A stretch of DNA of 41,294 nucleotides from a virus (Duplodnaviria; Heunggongvirae; Uroviricota; Caudoviricetes). Numbering within the stretch: the first letter of the stretch is position 1; each line of letters begins with the position of its first letter. The position numbers were made by a program, and so were the translations under genes. Shown here piece by piece: positions 28,257-41,294 of this stretch. The stretch spans positions 1 to 41,294 of the IMG/VR virus record IMGVR_UViG_3300033074_000010. One strand, given 5' to 3'. The notes beneath the pieces are model-generated. The model made no database searches and was not told the DNA's origin. It saw nothing but the letters and a program-made list of their open reading frames with translations.

Positions 28257-28388
28257 TCATTCCAGCACCCATAGATAAATTGCGATGAACATGCCCAATA
28301 TGGCAACCATCATGCCATATTGGCCCTCGTGACAGTAGACACCGACAGCAAATCCCGCCAGTACTGCGATAATCAGTTTACTTAGCAT
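28257..28388 (-). CDS. possible small membrane protein (43 aa)
   Basis: Hand-translated MLSKLIIAVLAGFAVGVYCHEGQYGMMVAILGMFIAIYLWVLE; start overlaps end of polymerase gene. Confidence 0.3.
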   Translation of the reverse strand: MLSKLIIAVLAGFAVGVYCHEGQYGMMVAILGMFIAIYLWVLE

Positions 28389-36743: not shown

Positions 36744-36772
36744 AGTATAAGGCGGTAACTTTGTAAAAGCAA
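36744..36772 (-). promoter_or_regulatory. sigma70-like promoter for leftward early operon
   Basis: Read on - strand: TTGCTT (36767-36772), 17 nt, TATACT (36744-36749). Confidence 0.5.
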
Positions 36773-36794
36773 CCAAAACACCACACAAAGTTAC
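36755..36794. promoter_or_regulatory. inverted repeat, candidate operator
   Basis: 10-bp arms GTAACTTTGT (36755-36764) and ACAAAGTTAC (36785-36794) separated by 20 bp; left arm overlaps promoter spacer. Confidence 0.45.
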
Positions 36795-37977: not shown

Positions 37978-38000
37978 TTTAAGATTTTACTGAGTGACTT

Positions 38001-38030
38001 ACGCTGCTACACAGCAGCGTATCATTTTTC
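38001..38030 (+). terminator. rho-independent terminator
   Basis: Stem ACGCTGCT/AGCAGCGT (38001-38020), ACAC loop, then ATCATTTTTC. Confidence 0.6.
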
Positions 38031-38174: not shown

Positions 38175-38294
38175 ATGTATAAGTATCTGACGGTTGAGAA
38201 ACTGGAACAGCTTTATGCTGAGTTGCGAGTTTGCAGTGTATGCAGCGGCGACAACGAGCATGTTTACGGCGAACTGGAGGTAGCTGATGAGTAA
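38175..38294 (+). CDS. hypothetical small protein (39 aa)
   Basis: Hand-translated MYKYLTVEKLEQLYAELRVCSVCSGDNEHVYGELEVADE; RBS GAGAGGAGAG; stop overlaps next ATG. Confidence 0.4.
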   Translation: MYKYLTVEKLEQLYAELRVCSVCSGDNEHVYGELEVADE

Positions 38295-38712
38295 CAAAAA
38301 CGAAGTATTCGAGTACCTGATTGACCAGCTACGGCAGCAGGTAAACAGCAGCCCGTACAAGCAACAGTGTGAAGACCTGGCGCATGAGGTGTTGTCACTC
38401 AAGAATCAGTTACGTGATGCTTCGGCGCAGATTAAGGAGTTGCATCTGGCTCTGTCCCAAGCTACGGGTGACGTGGAGGCGTATAAACTTATCCGCAAAG
38501 GTGGGTACGTTTCCGCAGGCCAGCGCTACGTGGTTGGCGAACATGCGCCCGGGCCAACGGTAAATTGTCGGTGCACACAGACGCCTGTACCGCCGGAGCA
38601 ATCTGGTTGCCGTAAGGAAGATACGCAGGAGTGCCGCCACGACTTTGAATACATATACCCTGAAAGCGGGGTGCACCGTCATTGTATTAAATGTGGATGG
38701 ATAACCGAATGA
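38287..38712 (+). CDS. hypothetical protein with Cys-rich C-terminus (141 aa)
   Basis: ORF track; C-terminal cysteines (NCRC...GC...ECRHD...HCIKCGW) suggest a zinc-binding module. Confidence 0.55.
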   Translation: MSNKNEVFEYLIDQLRQQVNSSPYKQQCEDLAHEVLSLKNQLRDASAQIKELHLALSQATGDVEAYKLIRKGGYVSAGQRYVVGEHAPGPTVNCRCTQTPVPPEQSGCRKEDTQECRHDFEYIYPESGVHRHCIKCGWITE

Positions 38713-38912
38713 CCAGCATCCTATTTATATGGGTATTGTCTGCGGGCCAGATGCAACTCGCGGCATCAGAAACGTTTTACTCGATGGAGGCGTGCCAGTC
38801 AGCGGCACGCGCCGCAGAGAACGCGCACTTCCTGTTTCAGGGTGACAAGCCCAACGATTCAGAGGTACGCGCTATCTGCTCACCTAAGCGACTTGGTAAA
38901 CAGGAGAGATAA
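38709..38912 (+). CDS. hypothetical secreted or membrane-anchored protein (67 aa)
   Basis: ATG 38709 in ATGA overlap; N-terminal hydrophobic signal-like segment MTSILFIWVLSAGQMQLAA. Confidence 0.45.
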   Translation: MTSILFIWVLSAGQMQLAASETFYSMEACQSAARAAENAHFLFQGDKPNDSEVRAICSPKRLGKQER

Positions 38913-38913
38913 C

Positions 38914-39195
38914 ATGGTACAGAGATATGAGCTTAAAGATGTTAGTGAATACCCCTACGACCCGTATAACGACCTGGTGGAGAGTGACGAAGGTGTTTGG
39001 GTTAGCTACGAAGACTACAAGGAACTGGACAACAGATTCCAGGACTACGTAGTTACAACAGAGATGGAAGTAGCGGAACTTGTGGCAAGACTGGCAGAAG
39101 TAAATGCCGAGTTACAGAAATACAAAGACCAGTTTCCGGATTACGTCGAGTGCGCGAACTGTGGGTCAGTTACACATGTGGAAGGGGTGGAGTGA
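38914..39195 (+). CDS. hypothetical protein (93 aa), paralogue of next gene
   Basis: ATG 38914 after CAGGAGAG; N-terminus MVQRY and YEDYKEL motif shared with downstream ORF. Confidence 0.5.
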   Translation: MVQRYELKDVSEYPYDPYNDLVESDEGVWVSYEDYKELDNRFQDYVVTTEMEVAELVARLAEVNAELQKYKDQFPDYVECANCGSVTHVEGVE

Positions 39196-39398
39196 TGGTG
39201 CAGAGATATGTTGCGTCTTATAACGACTATTATACCCATGAAGACGGGGAATTTGTTACTTACGAAGACTACGTGGAACTCGAGACCGCCGTTATCGCAC
39301 TACTCGTGGATATAAACCGACGCTATCCTGGGGAAGGGTTTAAGTGCCCGTTAATACTTAAACTCGCGGAGATTGTGGAACATGAGCCTCGCAACTGA
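39195..39398 (+). CDS. hypothetical protein (67 aa), paralogue of previous gene
   Basis: ATG 39195 overlapping upstream stop; begins MVQRY, contains YEDYVEL. Confidence 0.5.
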   Translation: MVQRYVASYNDYYTHEDGEFVTYEDYVELETAVIALLVDINRRYPGEGFKCPLILKLAEIVEHEPRN

Positions 39399-39675
39399 CA
39401 TCCTGAAACGAAGCGGCCTTGCGCCGCTGTCACCGAGAGCGAACACCCGAATATACAAGCGCCGTCGTAACGCGCTGTACCCGGAGATACAAGAACGGCG
39501 CAAAGCTATCCGCGCCTGTGGGTTCCAGAACGGGAAGGCCGTGAACCTCGGTGAGTTCAAAACACAAGAGCGCGCCGCAATCGCTAATCGGTTATTTAAT
39601 TACTGGAAGTCGCTGGGGTACGATGATATTCCGACGAAACCACAGAGACGACAATACATCTGGAGACACAAATGA
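39382..39675 (+). CDS. hypothetical basic protein (97 aa)
   Basis: ATG 39382; Arg/Lys-rich; track ORF 39373..39675. Confidence 0.45.
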   Translation: MSLATDILKRSGLAPLSPRANTRIYKRRRNALYPEIQERRKAIRACGFQNGKAVNLGEFKTQERAAIANRLFNYWKSLGYDDIPTKPQRRQYIWRHK

Positions 39676-40109
39676 CTACTATCGCGTTCGACGGAAGGAC
39701 CATGGCCTGTGATACCCGAGTAGCCGGGGACCACATTTACAACACAGATACCAAGATATATGAGAACGAGTTTGTTGTTATCGGTGTGGCGGGTAATGCT
39801 GAAGCTGGTATCCTTTTAGTGAGGGACGATGGCATTTTAGTACCTAAGCATTATGATTTTGATTTCTCTGCTTTGGTGTACGTGAAAGACACGGAAAAGG
39901 TGTATAAAGTCGCATTTTATAAATCATGGGATTGTGCACTTAGTTCAGTTATTCCGATTGCTGATAGCTTTGCCGCCGTCGGCTCTGGTGCACCATATGC
40001 ACTAGCGGCTATGTATTTAGGCCATACAGCGACACGTTCTGTAACAGTAGCCACCCAATTCGACACCAACACCGGCGGCAAGATTATTACCAAACAACTA
40101 TTAGGATAA
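39672..40109 (+). CDS. HslV-like / proteasome-type Ntn-hydrolase peptidase (putative)
   Basis: N-terminus MTTIAFDG (Thr after initiator Met, as in HslV MTTIV); GSGAPYALAA matches HslV GSGGPYAQAA; 145 aa. Confidence 0.55.
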   Translation: MTTIAFDGRTMACDTRVAGDHIYNTDTKIYENEFVVIGVAGNAEAGILLVRDDGILVPKHYDFDFSALVYVKDTEKVYKVAFYKSWDCALSSVIPIADSFAAVGSGAPYALAAMYLGHTATRSVTVATQFDTNTGGKIITKQLLG

Positions 40110-40123
40110 TTCCTACCCGTGGT

Positions 40124-40163
40124 ATCCTCCAGTTACTGCATACTTAATACGCACCTGGAGGAT
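40124..40163 (+). promoter_or_regulatory. inverted repeat sequestering holin ribosome-binding site
   Basis: 9-bp arms ATCCTCCAG (40124-40132) and CTGGAGGAT (40155-40163), 22-nt loop; right arm contains GGAGGA 6 nt before the TTG start at 40169. Confidence 0.4.
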
Positions 40164-40168
40164 TCATC

Positions 40169-40477
40169 TTGGATAAATTTACTGAAACAGTGACGGGGTG
40201 GCTTCTCGCTGCCGCACTGGTCGGTGGATTGGTCGGACTAAGACAACATAAAAAGTCTATATCCGGGCCGATTGACGGACTGGTATTTCTTCTCACCGGC
40301 TTCGCGTGTGCTATTTTCGGCGCGCCTCTTGCCGCTCAATGGTTTGGAATCACTGGTGAGCGCGAGATAGCTGGCCTCGGATTCATCATTGCCATTCTCT
40401 GGATGCCAATCTATTCCCGCCTTTCTGGCATCGTATCTGGCGGCGATATTGCCCGCCCAGGAGGACCTCATGACTGA
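40169..40477 (+). CDS. holin (putative, three TM segments)
   Basis: 102 aa with three hydrophobic helices; TTG start; immediately upstream of endolysin block. Confidence 0.5.
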   Translation: MDKFTETVTGWLLAAALVGGLVGLRQHKKSISGPIDGLVFLLTGFACAIFGAPLAAQWFGITGEREIAGLGFIIAILWMPIYSRLSGIVSGGDIARPGGPHD

Positions 40478-40742
40478 GCTATTCTGGTTTGTCACAATGC
40501 TTTCAATGGGCGCTTCGTCCCTGTTCAACGTGTACAATGAACGCGTGGACGACGGGCTGTTCGGGCGTGTTCTCTATATCCTGACTGCTATCGTCTGTGC
40601 CGCCGGATGTATTCACCTGTTACAGGGCAGCATGTCACCCACGCTGCCTGAGACATTAATCACATTAGTTGCGCTGCGCCAGATTCGTCAGGCGTGGCTG
40701 TCGTACGGAGGACATAAGCGTGTCTCGAAACATTTCAGATAA
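40470..40742 (+). CDS. membrane protein, holin/antiholin-like (putative)
   Basis: ATG 40470 after GGAGGA, overlaps upstream stop; two hydrophobic helices; track ORF 40389..40742. Confidence 0.45.
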   Translation: MTELFWFVTMLSMGASSLFNVYNERVDDGLFGRVLYILTAIVCAAGCIHLLQGSMSPTLPETLITLVALRQIRQAWLSYGGHKRVSKHFR

Positions 40743-41205
40743 TGGATTGCATTTCACTGCTGCATTCGAGGGATTCCGCGGAACTGCGTATCGCGCTACG
40801 CCGAACGAGAAGTACCTGACTATTGGCTACGGGCATTACGGGCCTGACGTAACTCCAGGCAAGACCATCACTCCCGGGCAAGGCCTCCTGTTACTGAATC
40901 GTGATATGGCTAAGGCTGTAGCCGCGGTTGACGCAGCAGCACACCATTCACTGACACAGGCGCAGTTTGATGCTGTGTGCGACCTGGTCTATAACGCTGG
41001 TGCTGGCGTGATTGCGTCTACTACGGGCACGGGCAAGGCCCTGCGCTCAGGAGATATTGCAACACTGCGTGCCAAGCTGGCGCGGTTCATCAATCAGAAC
41101 GGCAAACCGTTACTTGGCCTGCGTCGCCGTACCGCAGGACGTCTGGCATTGTTCGACGGTAAACCGTGGCAGGAGGCTGAGGCTATTGGGAGAGCCGTTA
41201 AATGA
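40720..41205 (+). CDS. endolysin, GH24 lysozyme (P22 gp19 / T4 e-like)
   Basis: Catalytic region EGFRGTAYRATPNEKYLTIGYGHYG; C-terminal LLGLRRRTAGRLALF resembles P22 lysozyme; GTG 40720 7 nt after GGAGGA (track ORF begins TTG 40669). Confidence 0.8.
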   Translation: MSRNISDNGLHFTAAFEGFRGTAYRATPNEKYLTIGYGHYGPDVTPGKTITPGQGLLLLNRDMAKAVAAVDAAAHHSLTQAQFDAVCDLVYNAGAGVIASTTGTGKALRSGDIATLRAKLARFINQNGKPLLGLRRRTAGRLALFDGKPWQEAEAIGRAVK

Positions 41206-41294
41206 TGGACGAATACGAAGGCATTTAGTAAAATTACTTCCACGCTGCTTGTGCTTGCATACTAAGCCCTGGTAAACCCGAAGCAGCAGCCCAA

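Follow-up and report, generated by a model that had tools for sequence, protein, structure and literature searches.

Why would a phage bury the ribosome-binding site (RBS) of its first lysis gene in a perfect inverted repeat? The question is raised by the 41,294-nucleotide (nt) record of a tailed virus of the Caudoviricetes (IMG/VR record IMGVR_UViG_3300033074_000010, positions 1 to 41,294; this whole stretch is called the window below), in which a 9-bp repeat lies just upstream of a holin gene with a TTG start codon. Holin synthesis sets the time of lysis and, through it, burst size and fitness. Kagunaviruses and Dhillonviruses, two of the groups in which we found this holin family, have been isolated in large numbers for E. 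coli phage therapy. Comparison of the leader across relatives gives good support to the view that the inverted repeat forms a structure at the RNA level, kept by selection, in which a strong Shine-Dalgarno (SD) sequence is buried. The occlusion is probably conditional, acting on transcripts that read through from upstream, rather than constant. Leader hairpins that sequester the RBS of phage lysis genes are a known kind of control; this case is new, and the literature that we searched gave no description of the hairpin for these phages.

The hairpin and its conservation

The elements of the holin leader in the window are the following.

40124-40132, plus strand: 5' arm ATCCTCCAG, the anti-Shine-Dalgarno arm, read from the sequence
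40133-40154, plus strand: loop of 22 nt, with partial additional pairing (40134:40153 and 40136:40151)
40155-40163, plus strand: 3' arm CTGGAGGAT, which holds the Shine-Dalgarno sequence GGAGGA at 40157-40162
40164-40168, plus strand: spacer TCATC, homologous to the terminator T-tract of relatives and not T-rich here
40169-40477, plus strand: first lysis gene, holin family, 102 aa, about three transmembrane domains, TTG start (PHROG 2359, E = 2.4e-32)

The two arms are perfect reverse complements over 9 bp, and GGAGGA is separated by a 6-nt spacer (T plus TCATC, 40163-40168) from the TTG at 40169-40171. The first-pass annotation had described these arms, the 22-nt loop, the SD, the spacer and the start codon, and every coordinate agrees with our reading of the sequence. 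The hairpin by itself has a folding energy of -14.2 kcal/mol, and both the minimum free energy and the centroid structure of the leader show GGAGGA paired at all six bases. Opening the holin RBS costs 13.3-13.7 kcal/mol in the folds, and the SD/anti-SD duplex has an energy of -9.3 kcal/mol. The TTG is the first start of the 102-aa open reading frame (ORF) at 40169-40477. The same start is annotated in the records of relatives and kept in all Kagunavirus-type loci, and the ATG of the homologous holins of Dhillonvirus aligns with it. The earlier claim that a hairpin hides the SD ahead of the TTG is borne out by the full pairing of GGAGGA in the folds and by the retention of the structure across relatives. 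The covariance models of Rfam gave no match at E <= 1 in the region 39600-41294.

Judged from the window sequence alone, the repeat is only marginally above chance. In the window, perfect 9-bp inverted repeats with a loop between 3 and 30 nt are matched 12 times, at about 9 distinct sites, compared with 5.2 +/- 3.1 in first-order Markov simulations. The fold of the 96-nt leader has a z-score of -1.85, with 11 of 200 shuffles folding as well, and the RBS opening energy of 13.3 kcal/mol ranks sixth among 49 heuristic gene starts. The repeat is significant because of the comparison with relatives, and not as a single sequence.

For this comparison, about 135 loci from viral contigs, metagenomes and GenBank were sampled for the leader, and 62 regions remained once redundancy was removed; the metagenome scan returned mostly chance matches and a few further Kagunavirus leaders. 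The 1.7 kb around the hairpin match 127 phage records at 80-95% identity, nearly all of them from Kagunavirus, the K1G-like siphophages of E. coli in the Guernseyvirinae. The most conserved stretch within +/-500 nt is a single island.

40099-40192, plus strand: conserved regulatory island of 94 nt, comprising a promoter-like region, the hairpin, the RBS and the first 8 codons

Of 121 GenBank records, 114 keep this 94-nt leader at 95% identity or more, whereas 78 of 119 fall below 80% in the holin body; 24 of 94 columns are variable in the leader, and in the holin body 229 of 280. Up to and including codon 8 the synonymous sites do not change, and only from codon 9 on are they free to vary, which means that the constraint acts on the nucleotide sequence. 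The leader is also retained in K1ind-type genomes, which lack the HslV-like gene that precedes it in the window and where 40092-40109 is non-coding.

Within the genus, the arms are invariant in about 60 non-redundant relatives except for one base pair. The change of A40131 to G occurs on three loop backgrounds (PK1, or L035; L065; and EcoPhCCP1, or L198) and keeps a G.U pair each time. The T.C mismatch at 40133:40154 becomes a G-C pair by a left-side change in the L009 group and a T-A pair by a right-side change in LSPA1 (L008) and PK1. Together with 40135:40152, which also becomes a pair, this gives L009, L008 and PK1 a stem of 11-13 bp with a stability of -18 to -21 kcal/mol, and the loop is of 14 nt in PK1 and L008. 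Among close relatives, the stability of the hairpin ranges from -9.6 to -21 kcal/mol, a spread of up to 11 kcal/mol.

Beyond the genus, the same holin family is found at 35-50% protein identity in Dhillonvirus, KW1E_UTAR, the Serratia phages Otaku and Scapp, Edwardsiella eiAU and Pectobacterium Wc4. Hairpins of differing sequence stand at the equivalent place in five of these lineages (Dhillonvirus, KW1E, Otaku, Scapp and eiAU), and in all five the 3' arm holds the sole G-rich SD-like run, which ends 5-9 nt before the start codon. Wc4 is the exception, with a small upstream hairpin that does not include the SD-like run. Searches of bacterial genomes, and of viral contigs queried with the KW1E holin, found no further lineages.

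The arms have diverged in step. In a leader alignment made from sequence only, CGTGnTATnnTCC...CTGG is invariant between Kagunavirus and Dhillonvirus, and the outer stem pairs switch on both sides between lineages. The core of the stem grows by matched C:G insertions in both arms, from TCC-AG/CTGG-A through TCCCAG/CTGGGA to TCCCCAG/CTGGGGC (Kagunavirus, Dhillonvirus and L194). A covariance model of the Kagunavirus hairpin matches the Dhillonvirus leaders from end to end at the homologous position; the scores, 11-14 bits, are weak. Pairing is seen in 92% of the cells of the cross-genus covariance alignment and falls to 24-47% once the partner is slid. Five pairs differ in both members between genera; the alignment on which these figures were counted had been fitted to the structure. 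Chance, homogenisation or recombination at a module junction does not alone account for the matched indels and two-sided changes. Since the Dhillonvirus stem, like the A40131 variants, includes a G.U pair, an RNA structure on the plus strand is favoured over a DNA palindrome.

The hairpins differ in what follows them. In Dhillonvirus, KW1E and eiAU, a stem of 8-12 bp with a loop of 3-7 nt is followed by T6-T8, which runs straight into the holin ATG. A standard scan calls this hairpin an intrinsic terminator in all three, and the depositors of WF5505 annotated it as such. Because the T-tract leads directly into the ATG, there is no space for a promoter between terminator and gene. The T-tract is missing from the window, Otaku and Scapp (tails TTCATC, TTCAC and TCAA), where the SD/anti-SD pairing is retained; the selected function of the hairpin there therefore needs no termination.

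A promoter candidate at the 5' arm and a proposed conditional occlusion

If the hairpin is selected, on which transcripts does it act? The answer depends on where transcription of the holin gene begins, and three predicted elements bear on it.

40101-40106, plus strand: -35-like hexamer TTAGGA, 16 nt upstream of the -10-like hexamer, inferred from our own position weight matrix (PWM) scan
40120-40128, plus strand: extended -10-like TGgTATCCT, a putative promoter element whose hexamer TATCCT (40123-40128) overlaps the 5' arm
40134-40136, plus strand: transcription start predicted from promoter geometry, about 7 nt past the -10 hexamer and just beyond the 5' arm

Promoters were scored with an approximate PWM of our own. 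With it, TGgTATCCT is the best promoter candidate in the leader, at 7.3 bits (99.73th percentile of window positions), and the relatives score 13.4, 12.0, 10.1 and 9.8. The TG and TATCCT are invariant, and position 40122, the n of TGn, is polymorphic (G/C 36:26); the other common polymorphisms fall at 40116, in the spacer, and at 40104, where G/A is the fourth position of the -35-like hexamer. The latter is a weak match (3-4 of 6 positions) that reads TTAAGA or TTCGGA in relatives, with TT conserved, and it is better in KW1E (TTGACC) and Otaku (TTGCAG). This pattern of variation at TTAGGA-16-TGgTATCCT fits a promoter.

The position of the hexamer is conserved more widely than its sequence. TGgTATCCT aligns with TGaTATAGT of Dhillonvirus, and a TAnnnT ends between -3 and +1 nt from the first base of the 5' arm in all six lineages. 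The six hexamers (TATCCT, TATAGT, TACTAT, TATACT, TAATCT and TACCAT) share T1, A2 and T6 and are free at the middle positions, and the TG extension is present in three lineages. T1, A2 and T6 are the three most critical positions of a -10 element, and the usual distance from the -10 to the start is 7 nt. At that distance, the predicted start falls within the 5' arm or just beyond it in each of the lineages. For KW1E and L194, a sigma70-type promoter is called by a standard scan, and the last base of its -10 immediately precedes the terminator stem. Given that TAnnnT ends at the 5' arm in all six lineages, transcripts started from it would lack the anti-SD arm. In Dhillonvirus, KW1E_UTAR and eiAU, the arrangement looks like a module in which terminator, promoter and RBS overlap. 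A terminator abutting the ATG, with a -10-like hexamer ending before its stem, can be seen in L036 (503-540), L039 (445-507), L194 (595-661) and L204 (~330-370).

Two other placements of a promoter were tried and rejected. The loop has no sigma70-like site and its motif does not recur elsewhere in the window, which leaves neither a promoter within the loop nor a recurring late-promoter motif of the phage. GATAAT at 40105-40110, taken as a -10, would place the start at ~40117 and keep the hairpin; it scores 3.7 bits, its -35 region is not preserved from one upstream context to the other, and it is not favoured.

We propose, as an explanation that we see as evenly poised between right and wrong, that the hairpin gates read-through RNA and that the putative overlapping promoter yields a translatable holin mRNA. 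Transcripts entering from the upstream genes at 38287-40109, which lie on the same strand, with no terminator-like site in our scan between 38021 and 40169, would carry both arms and have a closed holin RBS. The closed RBS of the first holin would keep the whole lysis cassette translationally quiet: the RBS of the second gene lies inside the first, is structured and overlaps its stop codon, so that gating the first gene probably gates the cassette. A weak sigma70-type extended -10 promoter, TTAGGA-16-TGgTATCCT, would overlap the 5' arm and start RNA at about 40135. This mRNA would be without the anti-SD arm, its RBS would be more open, and the TTG-initiated holin would be made.

The predicted accessibilities are consistent with this scheme. 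Opening the window RBS costs 13.7 kcal/mol on the read-through RNA and 7.4 kcal/mol on the RNA from the predicted start. In the relatives tested, the corresponding values are 12.7-22.0 and 2.5-11.0 kcal/mol, with a drop of 9-14 kcal/mol from read-through to own transcript in each relative except the contig L132. The latter shows no drop (6.4 against 7.5 kcal/mol), as an A.C mismatch already opens its read-through form.

The element of the window may then be the terminator-less local form of a promoter/hairpin/RBS module that precedes this holin family in at least six lineages and in three of which the same hairpin would double as an intrinsic terminator. Put more generally, the module would be three-in-one: it would terminate incoming transcription, mask the holin RBS on what reads through, and be disarmed on transcripts from its own promoter, with termination lost in the window-type lineages. 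This wider reading, which covers Kagunavirus and Jersey-type phages, Dhillonvirus, KW1E-like phages, Serratia Otaku and Scapp, and Edwardsiella eiAU, is offered tentatively, as one a little more apt to fail than to hold.

Several observations weigh against conditional occlusion. The promoter candidate of the window fails a standard promoter consensus scan, about 0.2 equally good candidates are expected by chance per 75 nt, and TGnTAnnnT occurs at chance frequency genome-wide (77 observed, 71 expected). As the hexamer overlaps the arm, its invariance could mostly reflect the stem alone, and only T40120, G40121 and T40123 of the TG and hexamer lie outside it. The window shows a modest predicted gain in accessibility (~6 kcal/mol), as codons further downstream can pair anew with the freed SD. 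On the side of the structure, T40156 is changed to C in the single contig L132, which places an A.C mismatch at the very pair that involves A40131. Variable columns number 2 of 18 in the arms and 9 of 22 in the loop, a trend only (p = 0.07), and there is no statistical covariation within the genus, where the test is uninformative since 10 of the 13 pairs never vary. The six lineages are of common ancestry and are therefore not independent trials. Finally, our literature search found no promoter, terminator or transcript data, transcript mapping included, for these phages.

What else could account for the hairpin? The explanation that survives best, still plausible although we consider it unlikely, is a constant throttle, in which every holin mRNA carries both arms and the hairpin and TTG together lower the rate of synthesis and so set the lysis time. 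This is close to what the first-pass annotation had proposed, namely that the occluded RBS and the non-ATG start throttle holin translation. It draws support from the buried SD, from the 13.3-13.7 kcal/mol needed to open it, from the TTG kept in all Kagunavirus-type loci and from the weakness of the promoter candidate in the window. Furthermore, the lysis time of lambda responds to the efficiency of holin translation (bioRxiv 10.1101/2025.05.14.654169). However, the stability spread of up to 11 kcal/mol among close relatives would imply very different rates of synthesis; an insulator that is either on or off accommodates it more readily than a tuned throttle does. The TG and T40123, both outside the stem, do not vary, and all six lineages have TAnnnT where the arm begins. 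For three lineages, whose hairpin is a full terminator right next to the ATG, expression needs some route that avoids the hairpin. Occlusion of the RBS by a selected RNA hairpin is thus the part of the earlier proposal that we retain, and its constancy the part that fits poorly with the range of stabilities, the terminator homologues and the TAnnnT at the arm.

It is quite improbable that the stem has no function, with the leader conserved as a recombination junction or by constraint on the promoter and RBS and the pairing incidental (or, in a minor variant, serving as a stabiliser of the mRNA 5' end). The mosaic boundary at ~40092, where the HslV-like gene is present or absent before an otherwise identical leader, speaks for such an account, as do the roughly 5 such repeats expected per genome by chance and the fold z-score of only -1.85. 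Against this stands an SD-pairing hairpin in six lineages with differing arms, matched indels and two-sided changes.

Still less probable is a plain intrinsic terminator or attenuator that stops or pauses transcription from the upstream genes. In Dhillonvirus, KW1E and eiAU, the homologues of the hairpin are canonical terminators, one bears this annotation in WF5505, and the tail TTCATCTT of the window aligns with the T-tract of relatives. Yet the window loop is of 22 nt, the tail UCAUCUUG has no U-tract, and the standard scan calls no terminator here. Nor does the CPT annotation of phage Snoke mark one at the hairpin, and Scapp keeps its hairpin despite a separate upstream terminator.

A DNA palindrome bound by a phage or host regulator, with no role in RNA, had been mentioned in the first-pass annotation as an alternative and is scarcely credible: the perfect 9-bp repeat with half-sites 31 bp apart from centre to centre (about three helical turns) and a loop unusually conserved for a plain hairpin loop would suit an operator, but the recurrent G.U changes on three backgrounds and the G.U pair of Dhillonvirus keep RNA pairing and break DNA symmetry, the arm sequences differ wholly between lineages with pairing retained, the arm and loop motifs occur in this arrangement only once in the genome, and the phages are virulent with no regulator gene identified nearby.

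Two further ideas were set aside. Opening of the hairpin by ribosomes of the upstream gene (translational coupling) is unlikely, as the stop codon at 40107-40109 is 15 nt before the stem, and more than 30 nt in K1ind-type genomes. A stem of 9-13 bp is too short for an RNase III site, and this possibility was rejected on stem length.

Conditional occlusion, if true, has several consequences. A module of about 70 nt would determine whether early read-through RNA can serve for expression of the lysis genes or only their own promoter can. Lysis timing would be set by a dedicated promoter insulated from early transcription and not by a constant throttle. Mutations in the stem, in the TG or -10, or in the TTG would offer a simple engineering handle on lysis timing. 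Some annotations would also need correction, namely those that take such hairpins for terminators and nothing more, and the wrongly placed holin starts in the records of EcoPhCCP1 and eiAU.

The lysis cassette and its surroundings

The hairpin sits in a 59-nt gap between the HslV-like gene and a three-gene Kagunavirus lysis cassette, whose first gene has been given above. The neighbouring genes are the following.

39672-40109, plus strand: HslV-like peptidase gene (PHROG 1040), a likely source of read-through transcripts
40470-40742, plus strand: second holin/antiholin, 90 aa, ATG start (PHROG 2508), with the SD AGGAGGA at 40459-40465
40720-41205, plus strand: endolysin (phage lysozyme), GTG start (PF00959, E = 3.8e-28), with GGAGGA at 40707

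The first holin has no Pfam match, and the CPT annotation of phage Snoke gives it three transmembrane domains. The ATG of the second holin overlaps the end of the first gene, and its RBS, inside that gene, has an opening energy of 13.5 kcal/mol (rank 5 of 49). The lysis genes overlap pairwise (40470/40477 and 40720/40742), and three of the six plus-strand GGAGGA sites of the window are the RBSs of the three lysis genes (40157, 40460 and 40707). This organisation suggests tight translational coupling inside the cassette.

Upstream, a mosaic junction lies at ~40092: some Kagunaviruses have the HslV-like gene, and K1ind-type genomes have an unrelated small ORF instead. As homology resumes at ~40092, the last 6 HslV-like codons lie inside the conserved holin leader. 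Downstream, in BUCT825 (L033, 1646-2157), a small hypothetical gene and a gene annotated as 'endonuclease' are inserted between the second holin and the endolysin and split the cassette, which is probably a homing-endonuclease insertion.

Two holin starts look like misannotations. In EcoPhCCP1 (L198, 68-334), the holin coding sequence (CDS) is annotated as extending upstream through the leader, because the loop variant T40145 to A removes an in-frame TAA. In eiAU (L204), the holin is annotated 54 nt downstream of the ATG that restores the MD...W N-terminus of the family (368 vs 422). In fBC-Eco01 (L203, 354-397), the depositors recorded a 'Rho-dependent terminator predicted by ARNold' inside the first holin CDS, 84-127 nt past the start; its equivalent in the window is ~40252-40295.

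Elsewhere in the window, a terminator-like hairpin on the plus strand (TACGCTGCT-acac-AGCAGCGTA, 38000-38021), followed by a T-rich tail, stands at the end of the first rightward block of small genes. The minus strand has three identical TTGACA-17-TATAGT promoters, with the -10 at ~33556, ~31455 and ~27896 (16.6 bits each by PWM), which face minus-strand replication-type genes. Strong plus-strand candidates are found at 75-103, 197-225, ~7113 and ~36843, and these two sets are probably the main promoters that the phage offers to host RNA polymerase. Further perfect inverted repeats of 10-11 bp occur at 36755-36794 (GTAACTTTGT..., near the divergent promoter region at ~36.1-36.9 kb) and at 28295-28323 (CCAATATGGCA...), and may be operators or terminators.

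Comparison with known systems

Overlapping junctions of an intrinsic terminator and a promoter between operons are a general feature of bacterial and phage gene organisation. The hairpins of Dhillonvirus, KW1E and eiAU resemble them in that the -10 ends at the first base of the terminator stem, so that one element would end the upstream unit and start the next. The window differs, lacking the short loop and the U-tract; what remains there is the SD/anti-SD pairing.

The holin gene S of phage lambda offers a second comparison. A preprint (bioRxiv 10.1101/2025.05.14.654169, citing Blasi/Chang et al.) describes the sdi stem-loop, at nt -21 to -7, as controlling access to the SD. As in lambda, where the structure influences lysis timing, the stem-loop of the window lies upstream and overlaps the SD of a holin gene. 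The structure of lambda partitions initiation between the Met1 antiholin and the Met3 holin, whereas the window has no dual-start motif and has a separate second holin/antiholin gene. A lambda-like dual start was looked for and rejected: the N-terminus reads M(TTG)-D-K-F-T-E-T-V, and the only nearby in-frame start is a GTG at codon 8 that lacks an SD and whose residue is not conserved in Dhillonvirus, KW1E, Otaku, Scapp and eiAU. The motif TTACTG occurs twice, at 40133-40138 and in 40179-40193, and CAGTTACTG at the base of the loop is a near-palindrome. The second copy is part of TTACTG-AAA-CAGTGA, a predicted 6-bp hairpin over codons 4-9 (40179-40193). Two natural variants, T40183C and A40189T, disrupt this hairpin and no compensating change accompanies them, so that it probably has no function, and a conserved downstream stem-loop like that of lambda was rejected.

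The closest likeness is with phage T4. McPheeters et al. 1986, as reviewed in PMC3014915 (section 29), describe genes e, soc, 49 and I-TevI as having their RBS buried in long transcripts, with late promoters in the DNA coding for the structure's 5' strand. For gene e, PMC3014915 relates that the lysozyme RBS of the long early transcripts is buried in a helix and that the RNAs from the late promoters are translatable. In both systems, a lysis gene has its RBS hidden by a stem-loop on transcripts that come in from upstream, which would guard against premature expression, and the promoter stands in the DNA of the 5' strand, although in the window it is predicted only. The T4 late promoters are gp55-dependent (TATAAATA), whereas a host sigma70-type extended -10 is the candidate here; a holin, not an endolysin, is the gene under the gate; and in three related lineages the hairpin has a T-tract and looks like an intrinsic terminator. 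If conditional occlusion is true, the logic of T4 gene e would have evolved, or been kept, in unrelated siphophages that use host-type promoters.

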